From NCBI GenBank assembly GCA_030068145.1, contig JAPJBO010000148.1:208409-272408 (forward strand): a stretch of 64,000 nt of DNA. The letters are read 5' to 3'. This DNA is from Diplonema papillatum. Lineage: Eukaryota. Below are positions 34,852-63,859 of this stretch, one piece after another; the stretch's first letter is position 1; every line of letters starts with the position of its first letter. The notes under the pieces were generated by a model. It was not told the DNA's origin and made no database searches. It saw nothing but the letters and a program-made list of their open reading frames with translations. The position numbers were made by a program, and so were the translations under genes.

Positions 34852-36036
34852 AGCTGCGTCCTGCCGTTTTGGTTGTTGTTTTACATCAAGCGCCTGGTGG
34901 TGGTGGTGGTGGTGGTGGTGGTGGTGGAAGGAAATGTGTTTGTGCGTACGTGTGTAAGCCCTGTTTTGAGTGATTTAACACAGCACGCTGCCATCCGACA
35001 CTTTTTGATATCGACAAGCAAGCGTGTTACCATAAAAAAGCTGTCAGACAAAGAACCGAAGGCCCCGAGTGCAGTCGAACGGACGTGAGGTTATGCGGGT
35101 CTACCCCCACACGACAAGACACACAACACAACAGGTCAAAGTCCTGAGTGAGAATACAATACACGGTGGTGTATGCGATGAACAAAATCCAGATCGTGTT
35201 TGTATTGTATTTGCCCCTCTACCTCTATATTTCTTCCCTTTCCATTCGGAGTCAAAGCAGGTCCGTCGAGTATTTTTGTATAGGCACCCAGGGTTCCCGC
35301 GTTCGCCATACTCTTGGGATTTTCGACGGCGAATTCCGAAATTAGCCCAAACAAGATTGTCACTCGCATTTTCACACACCCGTCTTGTGACTGAGTGCAA
35401 GCGCTACACTGTTTCAGATTTTCTTATGGGCAGTGAATTCGCTATTGTCTTCGGGGTCGCGGAAACACTGCAAGCACCCGCTTCGTAGGAAATACTTGAG
35501 GCTGCCGCTTGCGAAAGATCAAGGAGAAGTAAGAATACGTCTTCGCAACTGCATCACTAGCGCAAAGGAATGTTGAGTGACTGCCTTAACTCGGCCGGTG
35601 CATCAACTCCCTCAGTGAAATTGTGATTGTTTCGGGTGATCGCGTCGGGACACCCGCGTCCACATGCTTGACGCAAAATTGCAGTTGATGTTCAGGAAAC
35701 TGTGATCGAAAGGAGAGGAGGAAGCGCAGGACTCCGTAAGGGGGGCAATGTAGGCAAAAAAACGAATCCTGGAGCAGTAGTAGTAGTTGTCATCTCACCC
35801 CCGCAGCAATCCTGGAGCAAAACAAACAAAAAACAAAAAAAAAACGCAAAAAAACAAAAAACATGAAAAAACAAGGCCCTCCTGGTGAACTCAGGTGAAT
35901 CCAAATACTCGTGCACACGCCCGGCCGAACCTTGCTACACCGCACCTAAGCCACCAAAAACGCCCAGCTTTTCACATCCTGCCTGCCAAGACCATTCAGC
36001 TACTGCTCAACAATCCTGATAGCTCTGCAGACTGCT

Positions 36037-36894
36037 TCAAAAGCTTCTGATAAGTACTCGAAATGCCACCTCACCAGACCGCTGGCCTGCACGTGGAAGA
36101 CCCTGGCTCACCGGAGCCAGCAAGAGTGCACCAGCAGACCACCAGGGCAAAAGAACACAAACCTCCAGAGCAAAAAAAACAGCAAAAAAAACAAAAGAAA
36201 ACAAAGAAAACAGGTAGGGTGCCAACATTGGGGGGGGGGGGGGTTGGGAACGGGAGCATACGAATCGCACTGCCTTCGGCGACGCGAGCAGACCGTGCAA
36301 GGCTTTCCGCGCGTCTTCAGCCCGCATGGTGACTTCCGCAGGCGCGGCTTGGGCGGCCACCGCGGCGGGTTTCGCCGCAGGCTTCTTCTTCATCGTCTTC
36401 TTCTTCGGCTTCTTGGCCGGCTGCGCCTTGGCGTCGGCGGCGGGCAGCTGCCGCAGGCGCTGGTGCATCCGCCGCTCCTCTTCGATCTCCGCGAGGATGT
36501 CCGACATCTTCTTGTACTGCTGCTCCTTGAGCGGGTCGACCTGCACCGCACGGGCCAGGTCGGCGATAGACGGCGTGCTGGAAGCCACCTGCTTCTGTCG
36601 GAGGCGCTTCTGCTCGTCTTCGCTTCTTTCCTCAACGGCGAGCATCGACGTGAATTGCGTCACGAGGTTGTACCCGATACCAAGTTCGACGACTCGCGGC
36701 TTGAGCCTGTTCTTCGCGGCGTCGTCCTTGCAGCCGACCGTCGAATAGAGCCCGTCTTCCCACTCCCTGATGAGCGCCTTGGCGGCGAGCTTGTGGATGA
36801 TGTCGCCGGTCACAAAGTGCGACGGCCACGGCGTCACCACGATCCTCCGCTGCACCCCTTCTTCGAGCGCGTACATCTCCGCCCGGCGCGGGAT
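36037..36894 (-). CDS. VIT-vWA (inter-alpha-trypsin-inhibitor-like) protein, exon 2 (C-terminal part: …IPRRAEMYALEEG…VVELGIGYNLVTQFTSMLAVEE… then a Lys/Ala-rich tail)
   Basis: An acceptor (caccttgcacctttttgcccgcag|ATC) at ~36895 joins in phase to the exon-1 donor. 'LVTQFTSMLAVEE' resembles the conserved ITIH/VWA5A C-terminal motif. The 3' end of this exon is uncertain. Confidence 0.5.
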   Translation of the reverse strand: MPRRAEMYALEEGVQRRIVVTPWPSHFVTGDIIHKLAAKALIREWEDGLYSTVGCKDDAAKNRLKPRVVELGIGYNLVTQFTSMLAVEERSEDEQKRLRQKQVASSTPSIADLARAVQVDPLKEQQYKKMSDILAEIEEERRMHQRLRQLPAADAKAQPAKKPKKKTMKKKPAAKPAAVAAQAAPAEVTMRAEDARKALHGLLASPKAVRFVCSRSQPPPPPMLAPYLFSLFSFVFFAVFFALEVCVLLPWWSAGALLLAPVSQGLPRAGQRSGEVAFRVLIRSF

Positions 36895-38228
36895 CTGCGG
36901 GCAAAAAGGTGCAAGGTGACGGGGGGGGACCCGGGAGGAAAACTCAGTTCGATGCTCGAGAAACAATTCCTGCTTCTCGCGCGCAGAAGGCTTCGGTCAG
37001 ATCTATCGGCGAATGCAACACCCGTTGCAACAATTCCTGGGCTGGCCGATTTTCTGGGGTCTCAAAGCTCTATAGACGCACGCAGAACAAAGCAGACACG
37101 CACTGCCCTTACTTTTGTCTTCGTCCCCCCTTGGGTTCCTGCCTCAGTGTGAAAACAACCAGAAGTGCAGGGAAGGGGCGTTCGATGTTCTTCGAGGAAA
37201 CGCGGGAGTTTTGGTTTCCTTCTTTTTCACGTTTACGTTCTTTTCGTCGTCGGCAATTTCGGTTGTTCGAAGAAACGCGGTGTTTCTCATGGGAAGGTGC
37301 CTTTTGGGCCCAGTTGGATAACAATGGTAACTCCATTGCTAATACATGTCCGAAGAATCCAACTCGATTCAACCCCGTGGCCTTAAAACCGCGGGGTCGA
37401 GGTGATCCGGGCTATTGTGTTGCCTGGTCTTGCCAGTGGGTCGGCTCCAAGCATGTAGAGTCGGTAGCACCAAGTGCACCGCGGGGCATCTCGCTATCCA
37501 GTTAGCTGTCACTCCGAAAAATGGATCAGGCGCTTCCTTTGTTTGTGCGCACTTCAAACCTTCAAACCTCGCTTGTTCATCCCACGGGAGTGAGGATAGT
37601 ACGTAGGACCAGCGCATCCCTGATACCTAGGAGGTCGATGGTATGACGTAGGTGCTGGGATACCACCAGCATACCACGATACCCGGATAGGTGCTAGTGG
37701 ATGGCGGGTTGCGAGTACACGCTGCCATCGATCGGTTTTTAGAGTTAAAGTTCGCATGATATTGCGGGGGTTTAGGGTCTCCGTGTGACCGTTGCTAAAT
37801 GGGTTCTACGAGGGGGGCTTTATATGGTTATGGGTTGTGTATTTGGTGCACGCTTTCGCTATGGGTTGTCAGCTGGAGGTAGGCGTGGGTCCATGATGAA
37901 AGCTGTCGTTGCTTACAGTTTTAAGGCAAGTGCGGTGCTTGGGGACGGCGTGATATTGGGCGTAAGATAAACGTCGGGAGGATCGCATTTTGTGTTGGCA
38001 AATTGCATTTGTCGGACCATGACACAAAAAAGACGCCCCCACTTTGGGAGCCGTACACTCCCCTCTTTACAACTTTCTATTTTCTATTTTGCATCCCTTG
38101 GGTTCCTAGACGACATCTTCCTCGAAGAAAACTTGATGCTAGCATCAACCATGCATGAGAGGCAGTGCTCTGCCTAAACATTAAACTAAACGATTTTCCC
38201 CTCGAGTGTGCAGCCGGCCAGGGCATAC
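36895..38228 (-). other. ~1.33-kb intron of the VIT-vWA gene, filled with interspersed-repeat fragments
   Basis: It contains copies of the 'gggagtgaggatagta' repeat, the 'tttagagttaaagttcgc' repeat and the 80-bp palindromic-core repeat (38095-38180). Confidence 0.5.
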
Positions 38229-39746
38229 CTTGTCGCCTTTGACCATGGCGTAGATGACCTTGCGCTCGTCGTTGTAGAGGGCGGGTATCAGCGCCGGGGC
38301 CTGCTCGAACCCGCTGTTGAAGAGCTCGCGCTCGCGCTTGTTCGCGATGCCCGACCAGTCGACCACCGCCTCGGCGAGGACAGGCAGCGCGGTGCGGCGG
38401 AGCTGGCGCCCGATCTGCGCGCTCCACTCCGACTTCTTGCCGGGCTTCAGCGCCTCGAACCGGCCTCTGCCGCACTCGGCGAGGGCGTGCAGCGGGTGGT
38501 GCATGCTCGCGTCGCCGACGGCGAAGGTGAATACCCGGCCGCGGTTGCTGTGGCGGACCAGCGAGAGGCACGTCGCGAGCTGCGAGCCGAGGAGCCCGTC
38601 TGAAAACAGGAAGACGCTCGCGTTCGTCTTCCGCAGCGAGAACAGCCCGCGCAGGGCGCGCTGCACGTTCGTCGCGCCCCAGTCCGGCGTGAGCTGCCGC
38701 ACGACCCCGGCGGCCTCGACGTTCGCCGCCGTCGCGCGCACGCAGGCCGGGAACACCGGCTCGCTGACGGAGCCGAACGGCACGACGTTGAAGTACGTGT
38801 CCGTGCCTTTGATCGCCTCCAGCGCCAGCAGCACCGCGCGCTGCGCGGCGGCCATCGCGCCGCCCTGCGCCATCGAAGCGGAGCAGTCGACGACGAGGTA
38901 CAGCTCGTTTCTTTCGGCGCGCGGGCCCCGCGCCTCGTTCTCGCTCTCGGGTTCGGCGACTTTAAGGTCGAAAAGGGGCTCTTCCTTGGTGGGGCAGAGG
39001 CAGATCATGGTGGCCCGGTGGCCTTCGCTGCTCTCTTCGACCCACATCCGGGGGACGGTCAGGTCCGAGAGATACACGGACAGCACGAAGTCCTTCGCCG
39101 TGACGTCCGTCTCCGGGGCGAGCCTCACCGCCGCGTTCTGCGCCGACCGCTTCTGCAACGTTTCGTGGGACGCGTCGAGCTTGACGATGTCCCAAGGCAT
39201 CGCGACCCCGACTTCAATGTCAACCGGGAGCATAGAATGATCCGTGCTTCCCTCAACACGCTTCGTCTTCGACGGGTGGACCTTCGCCGGGAGGACCCAG
39301 TTGATGCAGCCTTTCCCGCAGTCCACCTCAAGCTCCGTCAGGTACGTGATCTTCACGATGACAGTCGTTTTTGGAGGCAGGTTCCCGACGGTGACGCTGA
39401 AGACATCCGGCGACTCCGTCTCCTCTTCCAGCAGGTACGCCCCTTTGCCGGCGGCTACCGCCTTCTTGTACTCGCGCCTCGCCTCTTCCTTTTCCTTCGT
39501 GACGCCGACGATGTGTTTGTCGTTGATGAACGCTTCGAACGCGCACACCGCGGCTCCCTTTTGCAGCGGGAAGATGTACGTCGCTTCTACGACGGCGGAG
39601 CTCGCGTTGAAGTATTCTTGGAATATCATGACTTCGCCTGTGTGTGGGTCGGAATCACGCCACCACCACCCACTCCCCTTTCTTCTCTCGGTCAATTGTA
39701 TCCACCTCAGACCACCGTGTGGAATCGAGTTGGTGTCTTCAACCAT
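38229..39746 (-). CDS. VIT-vWA (inter-alpha-trypsin-inhibitor-like) protein, exon 1 (VIT domain …EATYIFPLQKGAAVCAFEAFINDKHIVGVTKEKEEARREY…; vWA domain …LYLVVDCSASM…)
   Basis: ATG at 39744-39746. The VIT and vWA (DxSxS MIDAS) motifs are recognisable. The donor (GACAAG|gtatgc) lies at ~38228. Confidence 0.7.
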
Positions 39747-44884: not shown

Positions 44885-46801
44885 TCATGATGATACGGCC
44901 AAATAATAGATCTTGAAGCATACCTCTGGCTCTGCTGCGTCTGCTGTTTTCCCTTTTGCGGATGCGACGGGCCAGCGCTCGTTTGCTTTTTCGTAGGGTA
45001 GACCATTACGAAGAAGTGCCGAAGGTGGGTAATGCCAAATGCGGCCATCAGGGAATCTGATACGGACGCAGTCGCGTTCTCGGCATTTCCACGGTGCGGG
45101 CTGAAGTGTTCTTCCTGCATCTTTCGAAGGCCTTCCCTTCGCAGGGTGAATCCCACCTTGTTGGACAAAGATTCCTTCCATACCGCAGTAGTCATCTTTC
45201 CAAGAATCGCATTTATCGTCCTCAACTTGCTTCGACTGCCATTCCAATCCCCCTTTCACCTCTTGGATACCAAACTCGGCACACAATCTCTCGACTACTT
45301 CAGGGTCAGGGTGGACACGTACCCGAATCTCTTTCTTCGCCCCCAGAGAAACCCCGGGCATGTAATCCTTGTACGGTGAAAAGGATGAGGGGTGCTTCGG
45401 GTTGTAATGTCCCGACGGACCGCCACCAGGACCCACCGCGGCGGCTTGGTGTTTGTGCTCGTTGCGCTTTCCCATAGAAATAGCTTTAGCGCCCTTTCGA
45501 CCAGTACTTCTCGGGAGATCGCCATTTTTGAAGTATTGAGAAGGCCCCGGGTTGTCCCGCGTTTTCCGTGACTCGGCGACAGCCATTGAAGTGAAGGAAC
45601 AGGGTCCTTGTATCGTGAAACGCGGACCATCTTTACCAATGCCACCCGCTGGATCGTACGAACCGGGACCAACGTTCCCACTCCAACATGCTACCAGGTG
45701 CCCTGATACATCCTTCTCGATTCCGTTCTGAAACACTACTCTGTACCCTAGCTTGTCCCCATCGCCTCCGATCCACGGTTCCTTAACACTTCCTTTCAAA
45801 GGTGGTCCCGCACCCAAACGCACTGCGACCAAGGTTCCAGGTGGGAAGGGGCACCTTGGAGAGCGCCCCTTTTGCTCAAAACGGTGCTTCATGGTTATAC
45901 TCCGCGAGGTTGAGCTAAGAGCTGTATCGAGGGAGTACTCCCCAGGCCCGGGAACTCCAGATGACTTTGTAGTTGAGGGTGGGGCAGGTCGGAACTTTGG
46001 TCCGTGGACATTCTTTGACGTGTAATTCGGTCCATATGGCTTGTAGTAATACCCAGGCCCTGGTGTCCCTTCTTCCTCCGAATCAAAAGGACGGCTCGAC
46101 ATTGTGAACGGTTTTGAAGTCGACGCCTTCGCCATATCAAGGCGTGTAGTATCGTAGGCACCAGGGCCTGGCATTGCCATTTCATCGGTTCTCTTCTCAC
46201 CTCTCGATAGCCGCATAGCTGAGCTCTTTGAATTGTTCGAATGGGCACACGATAGCATCGGCCTGCCCTTGTTGTCGCTTCTCGGTTGATAGGAGCCTGG
46301 TCCGGGCACGTCCGTTGGACAGCGAGGAGTTACGACAGGGCTCCCAATGGACGGCCCCATTCGATGACATCGCTTCGGATCGGCTTCTTCCAGTCTGGAC
46401 ACACGCCATCCGGAGCTCTGATGAGGACCCTTCGAAACATTCAACACATCGGTCGTATAGTGACCAGGCCCTGGTTCGTCAGCACGTATGACTTCAGCTC
46501 TCAACCTTTTTGCCTCTGCTGTTTTGGGCTCTTTCGGCTCTTTAGGTGCAAATGAATACACCGGGGACAAATGCCATTTGAGCTTCTCGTCGGGATCGTA
46601 TTCGCCGGGCCCCGGCTCAGGAATAAGTTCCTCTTCTTGGTGGTAGCGATGTTTGATCGTAATCTTTGGACCAGCCCCGATGGAAGTAGGGATCGTATAG
46701 ATAGGGCCAGGACCAGCAGACCGAGCGCTTACAGGAAGCGGCCTGCCAGCTTCGGGCGGACGAACTGGAACCCGATTCGGCCTTCGAGACAATGATTCCA
46801 T
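44885..46801 (-). CDS. Sperm-tail PG-rich repeat (STPG/SHIPPO) protein, a flagellar/ciliary protein family
   Basis: At least 12 evenly spaced 'GPG(x)Y' motifs (PGPGEYD, GPGHYT, PGPGSYQ, PGPGAYD, PGPGYYY, PGPGEYS, GPGSYDP…), as in Pfam PF07004. A further SHIPPO-like segment at 44400-44513 (…SGRPPATAIDQSPGPGDYTIP…) may be a downstream exon. Confidence 0.7.
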   Translation of the reverse strand: MESLSRRPNRVPVRPPEAGRPLPVSARSAGPGPIYTIPTSIGAGPKITIKHRYHQEEELIPEPGPGEYDPDEKLKWHLSPVYSFAPKEPKEPKTAEAKRLRAEVIRADEPGPGHYTTDVLNVSKGPHQSSGWRVSRLEEADPKRCHRMGPSIGSPVVTPRCPTDVPGPGSYQPRSDNKGRPMLSCAHSNNSKSSAMRLSRGEKRTDEMAMPGPGAYDTTRLDMAKASTSKPFTMSSRPFDSEEEGTPGPGYYYKPYGPNYTSKNVHGPKFRPAPPSTTKSSGVPGPGEYSLDTALSSTSRSITMKHRFEQKGRSPRCPFPPGTLVAVRLGAGPPLKGSVKEPWIGGDGDKLGYRVVFQNGIEKDVSGHLVACWSGNVGPGSYDPAGGIGKDGPRFTIQGPCSFTSMAVAESRKTRDNPGPSQYFKNGDLPRSTGRKGAKAISMGKRNEHKHQAAAVGPGGGPSGHYNPKHPSSFSPYKDYMPGVSLGAKKEIRVRVHPDPEVVERLCAEFGIQEVKGGLEWQSKQVEDDKCDSWKDDYCGMEGIFVQQGGIHPAKGRPSKDAGRTLQPAPWKCRERDCVRIRFPDGRIWHYPPSALLRNGLPYEKANERWPVASAKGKTADAAEPEVCFKIYYLAVSS

Positions 46802-47185
46802 GTTCCTTGTTTTATTTTGTAGCTACTTGAACCTGCATGTGTATTATAAAGGCCAGAGATGACAACCGTTCTCGAGCCTCAAAACACACATTTACTCTTC
46901 TTCAAAGTGCGTAGCCTGAACGCTCTTAGCATTTGCTATTTATTTCTCTGGTGGGAGAAGAGGCGGAATATGGCTCGGGGTAAAAAGCTTTTCTGAGTTG
47001 GTCGTGAACAACAACGAACCCCTGGCAACAGCTGCTGCCTCGTGTTGTTCCTCGCCGAGATCTGTGCCGCGAGGAGGCTGTGGGGGCTCATTTTCAATGC
47101 CTGTTTCGTCTGGGTAGCACTATTTTTCACGAAAGGTTTTGTGCTGTCGGGGTGCGCTATGAACATCACTAAAGCCCCCTCCCCC

Positions 47186-47987
47186 CCCTAGGGCAGTGCT
47201 GGCTGCAAACGTGCAAACGTTTGCGCAAACGTTTGCGTTTGCGTTTGCAGATCTGGCAGATGCCGTTTGCAAACGTTTGCAAACGGCAACGGTGCAGTGC
47301 AAGGCTAGCAATGGATAGACACATGCGAGCGATATAGACGTGGGCAAGTGACATTTATGCTGTCGTGAGTGGCAGCAGTGACAGTGGGATGTCGACAAAC
47401 CGCAAAGGAAAAGGCTTTGTTTCTGTGGGACCCTTAGTCGGACTTCTGCTGTGGAGGATTTATTACCGGCGTCCCCTCCACGAAGCCGCCGCCGCTCTCA
47501 GCCCGCAGTGGAAAACGGAGATCGACACCAACGCGACAGAGGGATTGCGAAGGTCCTCGCTTCTTTCCGGACTACACGACCAGCTCTGTGCATTGGCTGA
47601 GCACTCCGACTGCCTCACCGTACGAGAGGGACTAGGTTTGAAAGCAGCAAACAAGTGGCTCGGGGAGATCTGGTGGAACGCATTTGGCACCAAGTGGCTG
47701 CCATTGCAGGCGGTAGCCGAGAAAAATATTATTGGCCAGCCCAGGGTGGTCGGTGTATGACGCAGTGAAGGACAACAAGCGAAGCAGCATGGGGATAAAA
47801 ATAGCAGATTCCCTCGTGCGGCTGAACTACAACAACAGGAACACCGCCAAGACTCTCCCGCCGTATAAACCCTGTAAAACGGTAATGACGTTTGCAAACG
47901 TTTGCAACGTTTGCACTGCAAACGTTTGCCGTTTGCAGAATCGGTGCAAACGCGTTTGCAGCCGTTTGCAGCCAGCACTGCCCTAGG
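47186..47987. mobile_element. Non-autonomous TIR element (~800 bp) with ~110-bp TIRs rich in the palindrome CAAACGTTTG; termini (C)n|TAGGGCAGTGCTGGCTGCAAACG
   Basis: Left end 'cccccccctagggcagtgctggctgcaaacgtgcaaacgtttgc…'; right end '…gcaaacgcgtttgcagccgtttgcagccagcactgccctagg'. Confidence 0.7.
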
Positions 47988-48611
47988 GTTGGTTGTACTA
48001 TGTATTATTTGTATTATTGTATTATTGTATTTTTGTATTTTTGTATTTTTGTATTATTTGTATTATAAAATCTGCTGTTTTATAATACAAATAATGCAAA
48101 ACTGGATGCAAGCCCTGACGCTGCAGCCCGAAGCTTGGTTGGCCATGGTGGGACTCTTGAAGTCTGAGGGGGGATCGCTGTTGAGCCTGGTGGGTGCCGC
48201 GTCGTGCCCCACACTTGTGCCACAGAGGAGCTTCAGTGTGATGGGGCTCACACAAGCCGCTCGGGTCACCTTGCTCCTGAACGCCTGTACAAGCTGTCCA
48301 CCTTGTCGCAGTGGCTGGCACCCGTCCACGTCGACAACCCACGGAGACGGAGAAAAACACCATTATGTCGATGTCGATGAGGGTGGTGAGGTCGAGGGCT
48401 GCGAAGACGAGGTGGATGAGGGTCTTGTAGTTGCGGAGAGTGAGGACGAAGAGGGAGATGAGGAAGAAGCGATCTGACAGAAGGTGTGTTCTTACCGCCC
48501 CATGTCCGCCGTGTATTATTGTACTGGTGTATTATTGTGTATTATCGTATTATTGTATTATTTGTATTATTCGTATTATAAACGGCCAAACCAATAATAC
48601 TGCCAACCCTA

Positions 48612-50097
48612 CCCCCCCCCTAGCATAGTGGTCAAACGATTCGCATGCGATAATAATTATCGCATATAATCGGCATGCGATAGTATGCGATAATTCATAA
48701 TACTGTATTTGTACAGCCCTGCAGGGGTGGGTTCCGGGGGAAAGTTTGTGACTTTCTCTGGGGTTTGTAGTAGCAAGAGTGCTATGAGTACCTTTCTGTC
48801 AACCACACAGATTCCGTTGCCGCCCCAATCCCGCCAGCCCAGTAGATCGTGCCAGCTGATACTACGACAGATGAAGTTGTTCAGATGCTCCCCAGACGCA
48901 AGAAGCATAATATTATGGAGGTCTTCAGAAGACAACAGGACCATGAGCCGGCTTGAACGAAGGCAGTGTCATGCTGGAACTCGACACACAGCCGAAACAA
49001 GACCAACCATGACTTGTGTACAAGGGAAGACTACTTCGGCGAGCCCCAGTGAAACAGCCGGAACCAGATAAACGCCGTAAGAGATGTCGACGCACCAGCA
49101 CTAAAAAGAGGCAGGCCATCAGCACTGGTCAGCAACCGTGCAAGCTCTCTTTCATCGTCTTCATCAACGACTTCGGCGTTGCTGACACGGGAGCCTCAGC
49201 CTTCCCGGGAAGTGGCGACAAGGTGTATGCTCTTACGCTGCCTGGGTACGCCGCAATGCCGGGATCACGCACCGCCCACGTTTTGCAGCTGGAAGGAGGA
49301 CGAAAGTGATGTTAAACGGCATAGAAGCAGTTTGCTCCAAACCCGTGTATCTGCAGGACGTACCCTTCGCTCAATGGAAACTGAAGTTTCCCATCAAGGC
49401 GTTAGCCGCCGCCGTAGGCCGTGCAGTTGCAAAGAAGAAGAGAGCCCGCAGCGCTACGCGATCCCGCGAGGTGAGCTCACCCACCAGCCAGAGATTGGCA
49501 TTGCAAGAGGCATCTGTCTGTCGTCGGGTTGCTGACGATGGTCTCAGCTATGAGTAGGGTACGGAAGTGGGTGCGAAGTCATGGATATGTCAGGCGGCGC
49601 CTACCAGTGCAAGAGTTGTTCGGTGGACGACTTCCGGATGAAGCAGGAGAAAATACAAGGAACTCTGAGAGCGTGATGGACACCCACAACGTACCGAAGC
49701 TTCTGCACACCAGCCACCACCAACCAAGGCGGCTCGCGCAAGAAGGGATCGAGCCATGGTAGTTGTCAAGTTAGGTGACACTGGTAGTGGTCGGTTGTCA
49801 GTTGTCGAAGCGTCACGGTAGCATGTCGGATGACCGACGCAGTGTACGAGTGAGAAAGGCTCGCAACGAGCTCCGCGGACTCGTTTTCTCACTTTCTGCG
49901 CCTGTCAAGCCATCCTGCCTCGCTCCGGGTCTCCCAAAGAAGTCTGCGATAATGTGCGATAATCGTGCGATAATCATTATCGCACGTGCGATAATGTGCG
50001 ATAATCGTGCGATAATGCGAATGAAAATGCGACAATTGGCGCCAAAATCCCAAATGCGATAATATGCGATAATGCGAATCGTTTGACCACTATGCGG
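48612..50097. mobile_element. Non-autonomous TIR element (~1.5 kb) with termini (C)n|CTAGCATAGTGGTCAAACGATTCGCAT and subterminal (GCGATAAT)n repeats
   Basis: Left end 'cccccccctagcatagtggtcaaacgattcgcatgcgataat…'; right end '…gcgataatgcgaatcgtttgaccactatgcggcccccccccccccccccccc'. Only short internal ORFs. Confidence 0.7.
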
Positions 50098-50121
50098 CCC
50101 CCCCCCCCCCCCCCCCCCCTC

Positions 50122-51250
50122 GTACTATTTATAAGCAGCATGGGTTCCACTGTCACCTTATTAAAGCCCCCCCCCCCCCTCGTACTATTTAGGCAGTCGT
50201 ACTATTTAGGTAAATAGTACGAGTGTTGTTTTTTAAAAAGTTTTAAGTGGTGCCCCCAGCCGCAACGACTTTTAAGTTTAGTTCCGGCTAAGAGCTCACG
50301 CTCGCTGGACAGGTCTTCCCCGTTTTCTCTTTGATGACAGGTGTCAGCATGCAGATCCAGCACAGAGAGCGCGTCCAGGTCCATCATCGCTGATTCGTCA
50401 AGGTTCACCACCTTTACTGCATCGGCAATGCGAGAGCTGCTGCGAGCACAGTGTGTTTAGTCCTTCTGAGCCTATTAGACACTCACTGGTTGGGCATGTG
50501 TCACTTACAGTGAGCCTCACTCCAAGCGACTATCATGCACTTTTGTCCACTATGACTGAAGAGTGCGGTTTCAGCGTCACTTAGAAGAATTAGAAAAACG
50601 GAAGATTTCGGCGAAAACCCCCAGTTCAGTTGCAGTAAGCTAACCTTTAGCACTGAACGAAGAAAAATGCGGTTTCGGTGCCACTTGGAGTGAGCATTCA
50701 GCATCACTTAGTGAGACTTCACTCTAAATGACGCCGAGCCTCGATCCTCTCGGTTCAGTGTCACTGAGAGTGAGGCTCACTCTACATGCCACTGGTTGAA
50801 TGATAGTTGAATAGAGGTTAAATAGTGGCTAAACAGTACGAGTCACTGCCGGGGTGCGGTCGTGGTTCCCGTGGTGTGAGTCGGGGGGAAAATCTTAGTT
50901 TAATGTTTAGGCAGGACATTGCCTCTCATGCATGTTTGATGCTAGCAGCAAGTCTTCTTCGAAGAGAGTGTACAATAGAAAAGGGAAAAAGGAAAAGGGT
51001 AAAGGGGTCGCGGGGAGTGTAAGACTCCGCAGGTAAGGTATGAAACCTTGAGGGACTAGCCCTCTTTATTGTTTTTCACCGCGGTGTTGTGTGCACCTCG
51101 TTCTTCGTCTCGGGTTTCGCTCGTGACCGCAGGGGGGAATCTTAGTTTCGGGGGGGGGGGGGGGGGGGGGGGGGGTGGAGGGTTCACGGCAAGTGTCCGT
51201 GGAACTCCAACCGATGCCTCCCCTTTCACCTAATAGTACGAGGGGGGCTT
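50122..51250. mobile_element. Candidate TIR element bounded by (C)n-TCGTACTATT … AATAGTACGA-(G)n
   Basis: Left end 'cccccccccccccccccccctcgtactattta'; right end 'cctaatagtacgaggggggc', preceded by a G26 tract at 51153-51179. There is an internal mini-palindrome at 50190-50232. Confidence 0.45.
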
Positions 51251-51716
51251 TAACTGCGGCCTACCTGTTGGTGGCTTGCTTCAAGCAAGCTGAACAATCG
51301 ATGTGCCAATTCCCTCAGTGAACTGCAAGTACACCACTGTGAAAAAACAGCCACGTAGGGCAGGCAGGCAGGTAGGTCCTGCACTAACCACACCGCAAAG
51401 ACTAATTAGGTGGGGCCGCTTCTCTACCTGGTAGCCCTGACACGACAACACTGGGCTCTCAGCTATTCTGCACGGACAAAGAGCAAAAAGAAATGCACGA
51501 GACAACAATTCGTAGAAGGATAGAGGTTTCCAAGAGATCTATGGCAATGAAAATGCGGTGATAGCGGAGCAATGGCGATCGACCCTATCGCAAACGAATC
51601 TGTAAATGAATCGATCAGGAACTCGACTCACTCTGTCGTTGTATCGAACGACAGGATACCGACTGCGAACACAGAAACGACAGAACGGGTATTATCACAT
51701 TGGCAATTCAAGTTGT

Positions 51717-52505
51717 TCACAGTTCATCGAGCTCTGCGAGCTCGGCCATAATGTCGTTAGGCGGGAAGTCTCCAACGGTCACTTTGTCGGGCGTGGTGAA
51801 TCCGCCATAGTTTGGTTGGCACTCAAAGTATCGCTTCTGCTTCGCTTTGCCATCGTTTTTGCCTACCGGCTCGTCGAACTCGACGCCAACCCAATAACCT
51901 GGCTTCAGTTCAGGGATCTTACCTACATAGCGAATGGTAGCTTTCCGATCTCCCGGGAAAACAATACAGCGATCTCCGACCTTAATTTTGGCAGCGTCTT
52001 CGGCAAAGGCTTCAGGATCTACTTCTTTCTTCTCCGGTAGTTTTCCTTCTGCGCGGAGCTTCTCCATACGCTTCAACTTTTCTTGTCTGACGCTGTTGTC
52101 ACGCTTGGCATAGTCTTCATCTGTCATCTCATACTTTTGCACCAGGCTAACGTCTGTCCAACCCCGAACATTTTGCTTCGCATTGGGGTCCAGGTCAACG
52201 GCATGCAATATTTGGCCATCTTGTGGGGAGTAAAACCCAAGCATCTTGCCATCGTCCATGTTGTCAGCAAGGGTCTGACCATCAGACGTCTTTAATTGCA
52301 GAATCATGAGGGAGCTGTCGGTTCCGAAGTGAGTTTGAACCTTCCACTTGACTTCCGCAATGGTTAAATGCTTATCAAAACGTTTCTCCATCACTCCAGA
52401 CTCGAAAACGTTGTGAGTAACATGGAGGATAACACTGTCATCACTTCCACTCTTTATCTCATCTCCTTCGCGCACAATGCCCAGACTTCTCGCGACGGTT
52501 GACAT
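51717..52505 (-). CDS. TBCB: Tubulin-folding cofactor B (N-terminal ubiquitin-like domain + C-terminal CAP-Gly domain)
   Basis: CAP-Gly signature: GDRCIVFPGDRKATIRYVGKIPELKPGYWVGVEFDEPVGKNDGKAKQKRYFEC. The protein ends …ELDEL. ATG at 52503-52505. It looks like a single exon. Confidence 0.8.
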   Translation of the reverse strand: MSTVARSLGIVREGDEIKSGSDDSVILHVTHNVFESGVMEKRFDKHLTIAEVKWKVQTHFGTDSSLMILQLKTSDGQTLADNMDDGKMLGFYSPQDGQILHAVDLDPNAKQNVRGWTDVSLVQKYEMTDEDYAKRDNSVRQEKLKRMEKLRAEGKLPEKKEVDPEAFAEDAAKIKVGDRCIVFPGDRKATIRYVGKIPELKPGYWVGVEFDEPVGKNDGKAKQKRYFECQPNYGGFTTPDKVTVGDFPPNDIMAELAELDEL

Positions 52506-53379
52506 TTTTTTTACAGACTGTTGAGAAGTGCTGAGGAATGCTTTGATTTCTGTGTAAGTTTGTTTGGTGTCATAAAGGGGGGGTAGACCTATTATTCACC
52601 CGGGGTTTTCCGGAAATTCCGCGAACATGAAAGCTAGTGGCGTTAAAAATTTGCTATTATCCAGGCTTTATCCAATGGTTATCCAAGGGCTATCCAGGGT
52701 TTTGTTGCAGGGTGGTGTTTTTTCCTTCGCGCCTTCGGCGCGATATTGATTGTTGTTTGGTAAAACTAACCTGTCTGGCCGAGTGTTAGTGGGTGCCCTT
52801 AGACAGTTCTGCTTGTCTAGGTTAGGAAGAGTCAACATCGAAGGATCGAAAAGCAACATTGCTATGAACGCTTGGTTGCCACAAGCCCCTTCCCTGTGGC
52901 AAATTTTTTCTGTCACCTCCGGCTTCATCCTTCGATATCACAAGGCACTCCCACGACCGTTCTTTTGCTGCCTGGCCGACGTTCATCCCCTGCACTGGAG
53001 GCGGTAGAAGTCAAGGAAGAAGTGCCACCGAAGCGGCACTTCAGCCGTCCTCTTCACAGCGCCAGCAAAGCAAAGCGCACCCACAGGGTGGCAGAGTGTG
53101 CTGGTTCACAAAACACTACACCAAACCGCGGCCTTGAGAAACCATTGATCAGCCTCTTTTCCGTTTTAACAGCTCTTTCTTCTTGTTTTCACTCTCTTTT
53201 TTTGTTTGTTGGCAACATATACATTCTATACTGTTTCCACACGCTTCTCACTTGGTGTGCTGTTGTTACACTCACAGCGGGTGGATAGGCCCATTTCCAT
53301 AAAATCTTCCGAGACTATAGCTCTATCGAGCCAACCCCACTTTTTAGGGGGTCGGGGGCGAAGCCCGGGGGCACTTTTT

Positions 53380-54120: not shown

Positions 54121-54189
54121 AGTGTGAGACTTAGCTAGCTATTTGGCCAGCTAGCTATTTTTAGCTATTTATAGACTGTTTCTTGTAGT

Positions 54190-54480
54190 AAGCGGTCGGT
54201 TTTTTGAAGTCTCCGTTTGACTTGTGAGGCGAGGAGGAAGGGGGGGTTTTCCTTTTGTGCTGTTAGAGCAGGGTCTGGGCAGTGTGTTTTCATTCTTTTA
54301 CGTACTTTGTGTCGCTTTTACTTTACTGTTTATTGTCACATGTGGTTGCGCATCCGTGTAACTTCGTTTTTGGCGTATGTGACCGACACCAGGTCCACTG
54401 CGTTGTGCTAGTGGTCCTGGGCCCCCCACGTCCTACACGTTGAGCAGGGGTTGCCGTGCAGTCCGTATCGGTCTACGTGT
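54190..54480 (+). repeat. Interspersed repeat shared with 56800-57020, 7655-7700 and 8560-8700
   Basis: 'cggttttttgaagtctccgtttgacttgtgaggcg', 'ggcagtgtgttttcattc…' and '…gaccgacacca…cttgggccccccacg…gttgagcaggggttgcc(g/a)tgcag(t/c)(c/t)cgtatcggtct' blocks. Confidence 0.55.
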
Positions 54481-56790: not shown

Positions 56791-58117
56791 TTTCTAGCGT
56801 TTATTGTGGTTTAGAGGTTCGGTGTTTTAGGGTCTCCGGTTGACCATTGAGGCTGTGAGGCGGGTGGTATGTGGGTAGTAGGTATGCTTACATACGGCTA
56901 GCCATGTTTGTAAGTGTTGCGACCGACACCAAGAAGAAATTCGCTTTGAATTTAGTCTTGGGCCCCCCACGCGCATGCATGTTGAGCAGGGGTTGCCATG
57001 CAGCTCGTATCGGTCTGTAATATGCGTTCTTACTTCCTTTGGGTTGAGGAGGACGTGCGGTGGGAGGGTCGGGTAGTAGAAAGAGAAGGTGAAGGGCTAA
57101 AAAAAAAATATTTCTTTTTGCGTAAGTGGCAACTGCTTGTTGTCCTCCGCAGTTAAGGTACTCTGAATGCACTCTGGCATCGTGGCTGGTTATCTGGTCG
57201 TAGCTCCTGGTTTGCGGTGTTTAGTTTTGCACCACGGTTTGTGGTGTCGTAGGCTTGTAAATTGTGGTTTGTTCGGTGTCTGTCCGTCGCTGTGACAGTA
57301 CGGGCAAATCTCCCTTTTGCCTGCTGAGCTTGCAGGCGTGGTGCTGTGGCGTGGTGGTGTGCGTCGTAGTTTCTTCTTGCAAAAACGCAGGTGGATGCTC
57401 AGGCCGTGAATGCCTTTTATTGCAGTGCCAGTTTTCGTCGTTCGTGTGTGGCAGTTCGGACATTGGAGTGCCTCCGTGTCGGGCGTGTGGCCCGGAGTAG
57501 GCTCTAGGCCACGCATTTCTTCGAGAATTTGTTGGGTTGGCGTGGCAGTGCCGCTGCTCTTGTCGGATGATGGGACGTCGGTGGTGGATTGAGAGCTGCG
57601 TTGTGCGGTTTCGTTCCCCGTGCGCGTTGGGGCCTGAAGTGCGGCGTGCGGTGTTGAGTTTGTCATTGCGTCGTCGTCGAGGTGGCAGGGAATCTTTGGC
57701 GCGTCTATTTCTTGTGCAAAATTGACTTTGGTGGCCAGATTCAGCTGTTTCATTGCCTTTCATGTAGGAAAGGGTAGCCAACATGCTCTTTTTCTCGTCC
57801 TTTTCCGCAATCGTGCGCTTTCTAGCCCACTCAAGGATTATCGACTTGTATCCTTTCCAACTCAACTCTGAGGCTGGCGGCATAGACTGAAGGTTTGCTG
57901 CTCATCGAAGTGCTTTTTCTACTTATTTGTGGACTCATCCTCGAACACTAGCTGCAATTGCGCTTCCCAGCTGTGGCTTCTCCCGCCGGATGCCCTCGGC
58001 CGCGCTCCTGTGCTGTGGCGGCTTGTGGCAACTCTTGACCAAGCCAACAAGTTTCTGCTATTTCCAGCTTCTTGTCCAGCTCGTCCGTTTTGATGTACTT
58101 CTTCATGATTCCTGGGG

Positions 58118-58607
58118 GGGGTCGAATACAAGAGGTACCTCTTGTATTCGGCGTGCTGATCCTGCAATTTTCCCGAAAAAAGAAATAGAAAACAGCACCG
58201 CAAACCCGGAACCCGCGGGAACTCCCTTCTTCTTGGAAGAGACGCACGTAATTTGTGGTCCCGTCTATTTGGCACGGTTCTCTTCATCGGAGCTGAACGC
58301 GAGCACATTCGCCGAAAAAGGTCTGCTACATGGGCCAGCAAAGAAATGTCACCAACCAGTGGGTCTATTCCCGTCCTTTCCATTGAAAATCTGTGGGTTC
58401 CACGCCCGGTGCCCCGCATCTGGCAAAGACCCACGAACCACGCACATGTTTTTTGGTCCCCGGGTCTATTTTTCACGGTTCTCTGCATCGGGATCAGAAA
58501 ATCGTCGAAAAGGTCCGTTATGCGGACCAAGGAAAAATCCAACCTTTTTCCAGATTTCCAAATTGCCTCTTCTATTCAAGGTACCTCCTGTATTCAACCC
58601 CCCCCAG
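58118..58607. mobile_element. MITE-like element (~490 bp) with TIR (G)n-TYGAATACARGAGGTACCT and an internal ~90-bp direct duplication
   Basis: Left end 'ggggggggtcgaatacaagaggtacctcttgtattcg'; right end 'ctattcaaggtacctcctgtattcaacccccccc'. Confidence 0.55.
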
Positions 58608-59709
58608 GCATCTTGTTAAGAACCATCCATCCATCCATCAGCCGGCTGACCCCCCTCCCCCCCCCTCAGGCTATTTTCACTGTGGAGGGGGGAGACGCTA
58701 CCTGTCACACTCTAAGGTGGTCACCACGGTGGGCAGTCAGAAAAAAAAAAATTTTTTTTTGCCCCAAATACCCCAAATACCACACTTTGGAAAAATTTTG
58801 TGGGCCCACTTTTGGCAGGTAATTTTGACCATTTCACCTTGGAGAATTTGACCACCCAGCCTCCAAGGCAACTGCACTGTAGAGGGGGGGGGGGGTCTAG
58901 TTTATCCGGCCAAAGTGGCTGATCCTTAACAAGAGCGCTGACCCCCCCCCCAGTAACTTGAGTTTTGACTCCTTCACCTAAGGCAATGCTTCGACTCCGG
59001 CGAACTCCGATGAACGGGGCTCCTTCAAAGACGAATCTGATGCTCGACTGTCTGCTCGTTCCAGTGCCATAGCGCTGTCGTGGCAATAATGTGATACACA
59101 AAACCTTACTCGAACTACTCGTCACTCGACACACCGAAGCAAACCCCTATGGATAAAAAACGATCGTTTTTTTCACGATCGTTTTTTTTTAGGCCAAAAT
59201 CACGAATTCTCGTAAACGATCGTTTCCAATCCGTGACCAGTGGCTTATATATGGGTCTGGTGCTCGGACCAAGTCCGAGCAACGAAAAAAAAAAAAAAGC
59301 ACAGAATGCCCCGGCTGAGGGGCCCAGTAGTAGTGCTACAGTACAGCAGTCACACTAGCAGTACACAGCACCGGTTACTGCACCTTTGGATAAGCAACGT
59401 ACAGCCTCAATTTTGGAACCTGCGACTGGCCCAATAGCTTGAAAAATTTTCCGCGCCTGCAGCGCTGGTATTTCTGGCTGTTTCATGACGTGTTGCCAAG
59501 AAAGCGAAGACCGCGGCTGTCCGCCGAGATTACCCCCTCAGGTGACCACTTTTTTAGCCATACTTCAACATTCTTGAATGATCCCGGCACACTGCTACAG
59601 TACCCCAACACTTGCCTTCTTCGCATGGCTCTTTTGCTTCCCGAAGGACAGTCTCTGTGGTGGACAGTAGTGACAACCACAAAAGAGGTGCACCCTGTTG
59701 GGTACATAA

Positions 59710-59895
59710 CATGCAGGGTCAAAACCTTGTGTCTTTTTAAAACGCTCCCGCGGGGCTGATGGAGCCCTAAAAAAAATTTTGGAAAAAAAAAAAATTTGCT
59801 CAACTTCCTCAAAAATTACTGCAGAGTTTGTTCCAAACTTTTAAAATTCAAAAACCCCAATTTTTTCCGTAATTTTTTTTTTTTGCCATTTTCCA
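59710..59895 (+). mobile_element. MITE copy 4 (3'-truncated), same subfamily as copy 2
   Basis: catgcagggtcaaaaccttgtgtctttttaaaacgctcccgcggggctgatggagccc… with no right TIR. Confidence 0.7.
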
Positions 59896-60652
59896 GGGGT
59901 TATTCTGCCCGCCAGCAAGGCCAAAAATGCTGGCGAAAAAATTTCTTCTGTCAGCGAGAAAATTTTTCTCGCCCTCACGTCGTACAGAGCCCGTCCACCC
60001 GCATCTGTCCTTCCATTCTGAGTCTTCGGCGGTTCGTGGTGCAAGGAGGAAGAGAGAGTCGGAGAATACGTGCGGTTGGTCTGGTGGAAGGGACGGGTAC
60101 AAGTTAACAAAAGAAGAAGTCAAGACAGGACAAGGAGGTGCAGCAAGGTTTCAGGGTAGTGTCAAGTCAATTTTGCGCTTTTTCGCTACCTTCTCCACCG
60201 GCTCAGACTCTCCAGCAAACCATGCTGCCCTTAGGGCTTCGGCTGCGAAGCCAGAAGTAAAAAGGTCGATTACCTCCTCCGCAGTCGCGTCGTCCATCTC
60301 CTTCTCATCGGTGTCTTCGATGAAAAAGAGGGCGCGCAGTGTCGTGTTCAGCATGCGGTTGCGCAGTCGGGTCTTTACACGGGCCAGGGTACTGAACTGG
60401 CGTTCACTTTCTGCAGAGGAACTGACAATGGTCTGTGCCAGTTCGACCAGTTGTCTCAATGGCTGCATGCGGGCACTCGCAGTGCCATCAGGGGCGAAGG
60501 CTTGATACACCGCGTGTGCATTTTTGGAGTATCTTGAGGCGCGTAGAACCTCCTTAAGTAGGGTCCAGTCTCTCACCAGGTCTGCCTCGGTCATTCCGTG
60601 CAAAAGGGGAGTGCCGTGGTCTGTCTTCGTTTCCGAGCGAGTGGTGCTGTAT

Positions 60653-60864
60653 CATGCAGGGTCAAAACCTTGTGTCTTTTTAAAACGCTCCCGCGGGGCC
60701 GATGGAGCCCTAAAAAAAAATTTGGAAAAAAAAAAATTTGCTCAACTTCCTCAAAAATTGCTGTAGAGTTTGTTCCAAACTTTTAAAATTCAAAAAACCC
60801 ATTTTTTTTCCGAAAATTGTTTTTTGGCCATTTTCAAAAAGACACAAGGTTTTGACCCTGCATG
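60653..60864 (+). mobile_element. MITE copy 2 (212 bp), flanked by GTAT/GTAT; abuts the 3' end of the hAT-like gene
   Basis: Complete TIRs are present. The transposase ORF reads through it for its last 24 codons. Confidence 0.8.
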
Positions 60865-63000
60865 GTATGTGGGTCGAGGCATCGTGTCTGTTGCTGGCAC
60901 GTCCACTTCATATTGTCGGTACGTGACCCGGCCGGGCTTGCTGTAGTATCTGTAGAGCTCCCGGATGTGTTCATCCCCCCAGTTTGTAAGGTGCGCGCCC
61001 TCTGGCCACGCAATGCGGTCAAAGACAACGAAGTGCCGAAGAACTTCCTTGGATTCAAACCGGACCGTTGTGGACTTGAGGAGTGCAGCAATGTATGGGG
61101 AGGCGATAGTCTGATGGAATGTGCTGAACGCTGCAGGGGTAACGGCAACGTTGGTCGCTTCGAAGAACGAACGGCGCCAGCAAGTGTAGTATTTCGTGAT
61201 CTTTTTGGCCCTTTCTTCCGAGCTTAGTGCCCTCAATTCTGCTTCGAGCGAGTCCACTTCTCTGCAAACATCCGAGATGGTGGTCGCGGTTCCTTGGAAA
61301 ACAAGAGAGATTGCATGCAGCTTTTCCAGAACGTCACACGCAAGTGCAAGACATGCAAAAAATTGCGGCTTACTCACCTCTTTGTACAGGTGCTCTGCGT
61401 GGGTGCTGTTCCGCTCGTTCCAGATGCGTCTAAGGGCTTCGCGTATTGCAGAATACTGCATACGGATGACAGAGACACTTCTCCAGTAGGCCAGCCAGCG
61501 TGTATCGGACGGCTCCACCAGGGCACGATTCACCTTCTCACACATCGCTGCAAATGTCGGGTCTGCGAATACGCTGCTCAGAAGTAGCTTGTTGATGTCG
61601 GAGTCGGAGAAGATCAGCCAAAGGGCGCGGACGGTTCTGAAGAAGTCTCCCATGAACGCAACTGCTTTTATGCCATCCTGGGCAAGGAGGTTGAGGACGT
61701 GGGCACAACACCACATGAAGAGCGCAGTAGCATTGATCCCACCGCGAACCTTCTTCTCGGCACCCTGAAACTTCCCAGACATCGCCGAAGCCCCATCAAA
61801 CGAGCAGGATACGAACGAGCCCTTCGGGAGATAACACAGCATCTGCTTTATCTTCGTTGCGTAGCCGGTTGCAGTTTGATCGTGCAGGACTTCAAGGCCA
61901 ATGAAGCGCTCTTGGACAGCATTTCTCCTGAGGTAACGAACGGTGGCCACAAGTTGGTGCTTTCCCGTCACGTCGGTTGTTGCATCTGCTGTGGCTGACC
62001 AAAACCGGGACTCCCTAATCTCGGTGTACAGCCGCTTCTCTAATACCAAGCCGATCAACTCCAGAAGCTCTCTCACCACAGTTGACGATGTATACGTCAC
62101 ATCCTGCTTCAGCCAAGCACAGAAATCGCGGTCCTGGTGCAAGCAAGAAAAGAAGGATAGCAAGTCGTGCACGTGCACCGTGTGGGGGATTTCCAGGCGT
62201 GCGATTTTAAAGATTGTTTTGACAATCTTGCGCAGTTGAGCCCGCATCTTACTGACACCTGAACGAAGGTTTGTCATAATGTCAGAGACAGAAACATGCT
62301 CGGCGGACGTTTCGTGCTTCTTCATGCGGTTTCGGAGGTGCGTTTGGTCGGCGTAAGGCATGTTGATGAGGACTGCTCTTGTACGCGGAAACTTTTGGCT
62401 GCAAACCTTGCACTGGGCCCCCGCATCTGACACATCGAGCCATGGATACTCGGCAAGCCACCTGTCAACAGTGGATCGCAGAATTTTGCCACTGCCAAAT
62501 GTACGAAACTTCGTGTTTTCTTCCGACTCAGGAGCGGGCTCGTCGTCAACAACAATCGGCTCAAATGCCACTGCTGAACCGGACAGGATCACGACCACGA
62601 CAGCTACTAAAGCAAGAACGGAAAGTCCGACAAGACTGTCATCATCTGGGTCCGACTCATACTCGGCAACAACCTCGTAGCCTTCAAATGCGGGGGGTTC
62701 AACTGCAGCAGGTGGTGTTGGGATGGCAACTTCTGCTTGAGCGGGCAGGTCTTCGGCTGATGTGCGAGCAGTGAGAGCATTCTCGGCGGCGATCTTCTTT
62801 TGAGCAGCATCGTAGGCCTTCACCTTAGCCAGCAACTCGGCGTTCTTCAGCCTGTTGCTGCCTGTCCCCTGGTTGATGCGCCTGAGGCTTGCTTGCTTCT
62901 CAAGCTTCGGTCCTCTCCAGTTCGCGTAGTCGAACTCGATGGTTTCGTCTGAGGGGCCACGTGCAGCGGCCGCACGGAAACCGAAACTCGCAAGCGACAT
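60865..63000 (-). CDS. hAT-superfamily transposase-like protein (DUF4371-type RNase-H-fold core + C-terminal hAT dimerisation region; CxxC zinc-finger motif CKVCSQKF)
   Basis: hAT hallmark blocks are present: …TADATTDVTGKHQLVATVRYL…, …MWCCAHVLNLLAQDG… and a C-terminal region. The ORF start in the track (63066) is the CATG of the flanking MITE; a more plausible start is the second Met (MSLASFGF…, ~63000). Confidence 0.65.
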
Positions 63001-63063
63001 GTTACTTGGTTTGGGTCTGGCTGACTTTGTGTTAAACAAGAAACAAGACAGTGTGTTTGTTAA

Positions 63064-63720: not shown

Positions 63721-63859
63721 ATAGGGAATGAAAACTTGGGTTGAAAATTTTGTGTCAAAAATTGTAGATTTGAATTTTTTTGGGTTGAATTTGTTGTCAA
63801 AAATTTGGGTTGAAAACTTGGGTTGAAATTTTTGGGTTAAAATTTGGGTTCAAAATTTT

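Follow-up and report, generated by a model that had tools for sequence, protein, structure and literature searches.

A 64-kb window of nuclear DNA from Diplonema (Paradiplonema) papillatum, which is the whole stretch analyzed and the scope of every count given here, contains a nest of at least six elements with terminal inverted repeats (TIRs) at positions 47170-51252, several of whose ends abut long runs of C or G. With moderate confidence, we favor the reading that these are non-autonomous, cut-and-paste DNA transposons resembling MITEs (miniature inverted-repeat transposable elements), and that the runs act both as part of the TIR and as a landing pad for other elements. The observation is largely real and non-random, and represents a variant of known mobile elements seen in one window. 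All runs lie where the original prediction had placed them, and the inverted repeats of its first four elements were recovered (26/26, 24/24, 50164/51250 and ~44 nt at 58098/58622).

A split C-run and the elements within it

The left part of the nest consists of the following features, in which a raised dot sets off flanking TA dinucleotides.

47170-47188, plus strand: outer part of the D-type terminus D1, TA·AAG-C5-T-C8, the left piece of a split C-run
47186-47988: element A, with a 26-nt perfect inverted repeat (47186-47211 / 47963-47988) that includes the palindrome CCCTAGGG
47984-48611: element B, TAGGGTTGG...CCAACCCTA, with TIR TAGGGTTGG(nn)GTAnTAT, 15/18
48612-48620, plus strand: C9, the middle piece of the split run, between B and C
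48621-50097: element C, with core TIR GCATAGTGGTCAAACGATTCGCAT matching 24/24 (48623-48646 / 50072-50095), TA on the left and GG on the right
50098-50161, plus strand: C-run and inner part of the terminus D1, C22 (the right piece of the split run) followed by TCGTACTATTTATAAG...CACCTTAT
Runs in and around elements A to D: C8 47181-47188; C9 48612-48620; C22 50098-50119; C13 50167-50179; G26 51150-51175; G6 51242-51247

The body of A spans 47194-47980 if its target-site duplication (TSD) is the 8-bp CCCTAGGG, and 47191-47983 if its TSD is TA. Its TIR ends in ...CAGTGCTGGCTGCAAACG, and GCAAACG/CGTTTGC subterminal repeats occur in it 21 times. B is flanked by C8 on the left, once A is removed, and by C9 on the right, with GTATTAT subterminal repeats at both ends (15 in B and at its right edge). 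C lies between C9 and C22 and carries GCGATAAT 12 times as a subterminal repeat. The predicted subterminal repeats of A and C are therefore present, but GCGATAAT is not the palindrome it was said to be. The claim that element ends abut runs holds for several ends but not for the right end of A (47983/47988), which abuts B, an element absent from the original prediction. A telomere-like origin of TAGGGTTGG was considered and dropped, as we found nothing but a short resemblance.

If A is deleted with one CCCTAGGG, and B and C are each deleted with eight C's, ...CACTAAAG-C5TC23-TCGTACTATTTA... is restored, and the resulting TAAAG-C5TC23-TCGTACTATTTA aligns base for base with three intact ends of the D type described below. 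This indicates that A, B and C are bordered by fragments of a single D-type run. The TIRs and subterminal repeats of A, B, C and D are mutually unrelated, which speaks against the single common family that had been proposed, and three elements with unrelated TIRs and repeats within about 30 nt are not explained by chance under uniform insertion. Elsewhere in the window two more TIR elements are found between direct runs, element E (G6/G14) and 58666-58941 (C9/C10). Because three unrelated elements share ~30 nt, and because E and 58666-58941 also sit between direct runs, the arrangement provides evidence for runs attracting insertions. The poly-C target preference suggested by the original prediction is thus supported for B and C, with A at the edge of B, in the C-run of D1.

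The elements tested as MITEs measure 525-1477 bp. A to D contain short open reading frames (ORFs) with no Pfam hits and no homologues, in line with the view that they are non-autonomous, and a search of 5.8 billion proteins with 1,094 aa of concatenated ORFs across A to D plus repeat F1 (below) returned zero matches. Within the window, further copies come down to the four ends of D type and, for C, a single partial paralogue: an internal 444-bp stretch of C is 81% identical to 24724-25171.

Homopolymer runs near the tips of terminal inverted repeats

A second set of elements carries runs within or close to its inverted repeats.

50164-51250: element D (copy D2), TIR AAG-C13-TCGTACTATTTAGG / CCTAATAGTACGA-G6-CTT, with TA (or TTAA) on both sides
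37812-37822, minus strand: fourth D-type end, TA·AAG-C6-TCGTAGAACC, within the apparent intron of the VIT/VWA gene
50493-50789: MITE lying inside D, with the 9-bp direct repeat CACTGGTTG on each side and TIR GCATGT...AGTGAGCCTCACTC
51133-51175, plus strand: 5' fragment of repeat F2 in D, G6-AATCTTAGTTTC-G26, between two G-runs
13558-13788: MITE unrelated to D, TA·CCTAG-C8-GTGCATAAGATGGATA ... G8-CTAGG·TA, with the run inside a 31-nt perfect TIR
58098-58622: element H, with a ~44-nt inverted repeat (58098-58140 / 58579-58622) matching at about 39/44, TTCTT..CA.GAT.CCT-G8-T.GAATACA.GAGGTACCT
58610-58951: weak fifth element, arms TCTTGTTAAGAACCATCCA / TGGCTGATCCTTAACAAGA matching 16/19, with G12 inside
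7494-7653, plus strand: TA-flanked element, left end TA·AAG-G7-TAGAATAATAAC, right end GTTATTATTCGGTTCATT·TA
35746-36230: element E, TIR CAATGTAGGCA / CAATGTTGGCA, 10/11, with G6 and G13-14 in direct orientation
Runs around 58 kb: G8 58114-58121; C8 58598-58605; C9 58657-58665; G12 58884-58895; C10 58942-58951

The D-type end, TA·AAG-Cn-TCGTA, occurs four times (47170; 50162; 51252, reverse; 37822, reverse), each time with unrelated DNA on its outer side. The probability that TAAAG precedes that many C-runs by chance is about 2e-6. Run length among the four ends is 6, 6, 13 and about 29, as expected for unstable homopolymers. In D2 the inverted repeat (50164-50193 / 51221-51250), AAG-Cn-TCGTACTATT(T)AGG, matches at 13/14 positions plus the run, the C-run of the left arm has a G-run as its counterpart on the right, and an AAG/CTT pair lies beyond the run; this pairing places the run inside the TIR of D. 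The subterminal repeats of D are TCGTACTATTTAGG. The original prediction had delimited this element as 50122-51250; its TIR stands, but there are two left ends (50120, 50180) and the outer AAG/CTT ends lie beyond the runs.

The same design is seen in two elements unrelated to D. The MITE at 13558-13788 can also be read as TA·CCTAG-C8-GTGCATAAG..., and as RNA it is predicted to form a 31-bp terminal stem (fold z = -11). Element H has G8 in its left arm and C8 in its right arm, with 17 outer bases, then G8, then TCGAATACAAGAGGTACC. In D, 13558-13788 and H alike, the inverted repeat extends past the run on its outer side with 3-17 conserved outer bases, and the run thus lies inside the TIR, near-terminal rather than terminal. 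TIRs that start with a homopolymer, as had been envisaged, are therefore half right: the run does belong to the TIR of these three elements, but not at its tip, and not in A to C. An attraction to poly-C targets, in turn, does not account for D, H or 13558-13788. Runs that belong to adjacent repeats, which had been named as a finding that would count against the idea, are what we see for A, B and C, whose runs are pieces of a D-type terminus, and not what we see for D, H and 13558-13788. Element H had been drawn as 58118-58607; its inverted repeat is present with the run 17 nt inside it. The neighboring 58610-58950 is weak, as its 19-nt arm has 3 mismatches and the arms lie 5-8 nt in from the runs; its left arm is shared with the right arm of H, and another reading of 58610-58951 is the element 58666-58941, between C9 and C10.

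We read family D as carrying a near-terminal homopolymer in its TIR, TA·AAG-C(6 to about 29)-TCGTA..., with a length that drifts from copy to copy, and 13558-13788 (C8/G8) and 58098-58622 (G8/C8) as built on the same plan. TA stands on both sides of D, 13558-13788 and 7494-7653, as expected of a TA target-site duplication; since TA is self-complementary, it can also be read as the TIR tip. The site of 7494-7653 is empty (CTTGTA·GTAAG) in the paralogous repeat 54182-54192, with a single TA at 54186-54187. A TTAA duplication of the piggyBac/Kolobok type fits one complete D copy as well as TA does, as D2 has TTAA on both sides; the other D-type ends have CTAA and ATAA, and this assignment for the family was rejected. 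G-run ends with TAAAG are preceded by GTAA, TTAA and ATAA. A 3-bp TWA duplication of the PIF/Harbinger type was also dropped for D, where the two sides are TAA and TTA, with no direct repeat. Separately, the 9-bp direct repeat around the MITE at 50493-50789 has the length of a Mutator-like TSD.

Target sites, superfamily and the origin of the runs

How the C-run of D1 came to be split can be pictured as follows. The long run (from 47170) would have been hit by B and by C, and A would then have entered the junction of the C-run and B. If these elements are hAT-like, each would have duplicated up to eight C's, turning a ~23-C run into C8 + C9 + C22. Hermes inserts in nucleosome-free DNA, and by analogy we favor the idea that runs attract insertions as accessible, nucleosome-poor or break-prone tracts.

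We tentatively class A, B and C as hAT-like because they have short TIRs starting TAG/CAG and dense subterminal repeats. A would fit a perfect 8-bp TSD, CCCTAGGG/CCCTAGGG, with a CAGTG... TIR; B has flanks C8/C8(+1), and C has C8 within C9/C22. With 5'-YARNG as the criterion for the start of a hAT TIR, A (CAGTG) and B (TAGGG) fit, and C (TAGCA on the left, CCGCA on the right) does not. Compared with hAT MITEs of the Ac/Ds type, A, B and C are alike in their short CAG/TAG TIRs, subterminal repeats in two orientations, lack of coding capacity and 8-bp-compatible flanks, as well as in the presence of a hAT transposase gene in the same window. The GCAAACG repeats of A resemble the AAACGG motifs of Ac. 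A, B and C differ from hAT MITEs in that insertion into G/C homopolymers is not a described hAT preference and in the asymmetric tips of C (TA.../...GG). The transposase gene is the following feature.

60154-63072, minus strand: hAT transposase-like reading frames, with a MITE between them; homology to a hAT protein and a Dimer_Tnp_hAT domain

The ORF at 60154-60651 matches Dimer_Tnp_hAT at 30.7 bits, above the Pfam cut-off of 21.4, and homology to a hAT protein was found for the ORF at 60793-63072 (E = 5e-14); the two are separated by a 218-bp MITE at 60650-60867. Judged by this homology, hAT elements exist in the D. papillatum genome. We found no TIRs for the gene at 60154-63072 and no autonomous partner with matching TIRs, and an exact 8/9-bp TSD scan of the window gave no informative hAT-type case besides A and C.

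Several points weigh against the reading we favor. The single-base flanks fit a TSD of anything from 0 to 8 for B and from 0 to 9 for C, and the 8-bp candidate TSD of A is palindromic and equally an extension of the TIR with a TA duplication. The outermost bases of C mismatch (TA vs CC), which is atypical for hAT, and the element 7494-7653 shows this TA/GG asymmetry again in its core (7504-7647). A hAT origin of B through an internal 'RSFSVMGL..LAPERLYKLSTL' remnant had neither Pfam Dimer_Tnp_hAT nor phmmer support and no match to the hAT ORF of the window. E has only G6 on one side. Two repeats without TIRs, F1 and F2, are bounded by G-runs as well, and one F2 fragment lies between G6 and G26; the nest model has no explanation for these. 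TAAAG is followed by G6-7 and TAG... three times and by Cn and TCGTA... four times, and behind a ...CTTAACAAGA... module there is G8 at one site and C10 at a second. Finally, the evidence is drawn from one 64-kb window.

An unlikely alternative takes A and B, and perhaps C too, for elements of the Tc1/mariner or Stowaway kind with TA duplications, giving TA·GGGCAGTG...CACTGCCC·TA·GGGTTGG...CCAACCC·TA, with the C-runs as pre-existing neighbors that were not duplicated. TA indeed stands on both sides of A and B, the TA flanks of D, 13558-13788 and 7494-7653 are consistent with it, the last with the empty site CTTGTA·GTAAG, and CAGTGCTGGC of A would match the start of the C. elegans Tc1 TIR. However, C has TA on the left and GG on the right despite its perfect 24-nt TIR, E and 58666-58941 lack TA, and the pre-insertion site would, implausibly, have been C8-TA-C9-TA..GG-C22, whereas a normal D-type end reappears once flanks of run length are taken out. 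Dense subterminal repeats are also unusual in Stowaway-type MITEs. D, 13558-13788 and 7494-7653 resemble Stowaway-like MITEs of Tc1/mariner in that all three are small, non-coding, TIR-bounded and TA-flanked; they differ in that their TIRs carry a C or G homopolymer of 6 to about 29 nt a few bases from the tip. To our knowledge, no described Tc1/mariner, pogo or Stowaway family has such a near-tip homopolymer. Micron of rice is a non-autonomous element found in a simple-sequence tract, with (TA)n and not G/C homopolymers as its target. Unlike Micron, several unrelated families use the runs here, and the run is carried by another transposon.

Runs of G or C are strongly enriched in the window and, unlike those of A or T, associated with repeat boundaries. 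Shuffles that preserved dinucleotides gave about 2.1 G/C runs of at least 8 nt, and the window has 26; A/T runs are enriched too (36 vs about 4). Of the G/C runs, 10/38 lie at self-alignment end points, which mark repeat boundaries, against 3.5 expected (p about 0.0015), whereas 4/55 of the A/T runs do so against 4.9 expected. TIR-like matches just inside run pairs scored at least 6 in 8/261 pairs, with a null rate of 0.34%. Among G/C runs a length of exactly 8 is in excess (7 nt, 12 runs; 8 nt, 13; 9 nt, 5), which would suit the hAT-like reading of A, B and C; A/T runs show the excess more weakly, and the flanks of runs are biased toward A-run-T.

Repeats without TIRs inform the origin of the runs, and the type copy of F1 is given here.

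13209-13382, plus strand: repeat F1, ATTGCAAGAACG...GGTTAGA, no TIR, between G8 and G8

F1 (start also ATTGCAAGAACGTGCTTGGAATGG...) is about 158 nt long. Its other copies are at 14304-14479 (G8/G10), 8385-8547, 13116-13208, 193-294, 398-433 and 20511-20555. In 7/7 copies there is a G-run just before the 5' end, and usually another follows the 3' end; one copy is an internal deletion with both ends kept. In repeat F3, GGGGGGG is aligned with GAGGAGG. Runs in older copies show point-mutation decay, which argues against both artefact and runs made at junctions. Repeat F2 has the form G5-6 A2-4 TCTTAGTTTAATGTTTAGGCAG...GATGCTAGCATC... and is found at 20880-21290, 23641-23716, 26831-26876, 38113-38205 (minus strand), 50875-50971 and 51133-51149; across 20900-21280 part of it is repeated in tandem every 143 bp, each unit ending in G7. 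An origin of F1 and F2 as short interspersed nuclear elements or other non-long-terminal-repeat retrotransposons was rejected, as they have a constant 5' end (plus strand), runs on both sides and no A-tail. Rfam and tRNA scans for a structural-RNA origin of F1 and F2 returned only a 28S fragment, unrelated to the runs, and metagenome scans with F1 and with the CATGCAGGG MITE gave no matches.

These repeats bear on a second rival, that G/C runs are not inherited but made at junctions, where a template-independent or slipping polymerase would G-tail 3' ends before annealing and fill-in, much as N-addition or dG/dC tailing does. The strand extended would decide whether the result is a G-run or a C-run. 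This reading would explain why outer modules take G in some places and C in others (TAAAG, three versus four; CTTAACAAGA, G8 versus C10), why repeats with and without TIRs are both run-bounded, why G/C and not A/T runs lie at boundaries, and the A-run-T flank bias; tailing and annealing would yield inverted C...G or G...C flanks, or direct pairs. Nevertheless, we consider this quite improbable: the runs hold fixed positions within families (D-type 4/4, F1 7/7, F3), the outer bases past the run are inverted repeats that travel with the element, and two unrelated elements have equal 8/8 arms. We know of no enzyme or precedent for G-tailing at junctions.

Little probability also goes to capture at fragile runs, in which long G/C runs would break (through stalled forks, G-quadruplexes or i-motifs) and end joining would capture excised transposons or cDNA with no fixed duplication. 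The inserts between direct runs are very diverse (B, C, E, F1 and F2 fragments) and flank lengths are unequal (9/22, 6/14, 6/26), as this model would have it. Yet in B, C, E and A the insert stops exactly where the TIR does, as would ends made by a transposase, and the flanks are mostly at least 8 nt with a mode of 8, where capture predicts arbitrary splits including very short ones. The inheritance of runs at fixed family positions, with decay by point mutation in older copies, also speaks against it.

We take the homopolymer runs as real genomic sequence, and an assembly artefact is unlikely because independent copies carry them at one and the same position (F1 7/7, D-type 4/4). Homopolymer lengths are error-prone, and the D. 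papillatum genome paper (Valach et al. 2023) notes poor sequencing through homopolymer stretches. That homopolymer errors or chimeric joins at poly-G reads produced the pattern is nonetheless very hard to credit, given that runs lie at homologous positions in independent copies and in both TIR arms, that those in older copies have decayed by point mutation, and that the assembly had long-read support.

Known repeats, introns and gene context

The genome paper (Valach et al. 2023) gives a repeat content of 52%, with about 9,800 dispersed motifs left unclassified; dispersed repeats without a class make up about half of the genome. It lists MULE, TATE and Tc5 as the only DNA-transposon proteins, Tc5 being one protein with a Tc5-type DNA-binding domain, and does not mention hAT, TIR families or homopolymers at repeat borders; its supplement describes long T, G and C homopolymers in one 3' untranslated region. 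In our literature searches, neither TIRs with built-in G/C homopolymers nor DNA transposons targeted to homopolymers turned up. The window suggests a rule for part of the unclassified repeats, namely that G/C runs in transposon ends attract insertions and build nests. If true genome-wide, both the make-up of the TIRs and the choice of target would be unusual for eukaryotic DNA transposons.

The elements with C...G arms also bear on intron origins. Thakur et al. 2025 describe non-canonical introns of hemistasiid diplonemids with inverted G-/C-rich ends that base-pair, and suggest a MITE-like origin; Milanowski et al. 2014 (PMC3935182) proposed the same for the non-canonical introns of euglenids, where no such transposons were then known. 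D (AAGCCCCCC...GGGGGGCTT) and 13558-13788 have G/C-rich pairing ends of this kind. They differ in that the non-canonical introns have medians of 37-91 nt and lie in genes, whereas the elements here are 230-1500 bp and are intergenic or in canonical introns, and D. papillatum introns are canonical. As a lead that rests on likeness of end design, the C...G-armed MITEs may be relatives of elements that became non-canonical, end-pairing introns of other diplonemids and of euglenids. The MITE-origin proposal lacked actual MITEs of this type in Euglenozoa, and these elements are concrete candidates for comparison.

Every recognizable gene in the window is on the minus strand (6PF2K, VIT/VWA, a SHIPPO-repeat protein and TBCB), which fits the co-transcribed gene clusters described for the D. 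papillatum genome. The ORF at 51720-52505 (minus strand) is identical to the tubulin-folding cofactor B (TBCB) of D. papillatum (KAJ9463911.1), and the transposon nest at 47170-51252 lies in the spacer between it and the SHIPPO-repeat gene (44888-46822). Among runs of at least 7 nt on the plus strand, 26 are G-runs and 12 are C-runs (p = 0.03); with genes on the minus strand, C-runs are thus favored on the sense strand. A role as polypyrimidine tracts was dropped as a general explanation, as only 2/26 minus-strand C-runs (58114-58121, 32961-32970) directly precede AG, with 26 nt between a third (36921-36928) and the 3' splice site downstream of it. At 58098-58121, on the minus strand, the C8 of element H is followed by AG and, 5 nt on, by an ATG-initiated ORF (MKKYIKTDELDKK...). 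Here a run carried by a transposon may provide both a C-rich polypyrimidine tract and an acceptor.

The VIT/VWA gene (36244-39746, minus strand) is apparently split by an intron of ~1.25 kb that contains a D-type end and an F2 copy; a minus-strand C8 precedes the 3' splice AG by 26 nt. Element E is placed in a C14 run at the end of the last exon of this gene.

Close to the hAT gene we noted a MITE family with TIR CATGCAGGGTCAAAACCTTGTGTC (6536-6741, 59707-59893, 60650-60867 and 63061-63278) and 4-bp duplications GTAT, GTAT and TTAA; of its 4 copies in the 64 kb, two are in or beside the hAT gene. An array of ~57-bp palindromic units, GGTTCAATGTTAAGTATAGGTAATTACCTATACTTAACATTGAACC, lies beside the same gene at 63458-63730 and is followed by (GT)n at about 63867-63910.

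A 5,975-bp element at 14270-20244 has a perfect 26-nt TIR, GGGATGACGTTTTTGGAATACCGACG, with G-runs just inside both TIRs, long minus-strand ORFs with a weak RT_RNaseH match, and inverted repeat arrays of ~52-bp period (CAACTATGCGCAAC...) near both ends. An inverted repeat of 154 nt with 96% identity (1709-1862 / 7021-7174) spans 5.5 kb with no duplication evident, and is possibly a long-TIR element. The isolated 120-nt 28S rRNA fragment at 52768-52887 (minus strand; Rfam LSU_rRNA_eukarya, 54 bits) has no bounding runs, and it matches the pattern in the genome paper of thousands of 28S pieces scattered in the D. papillatum genome.

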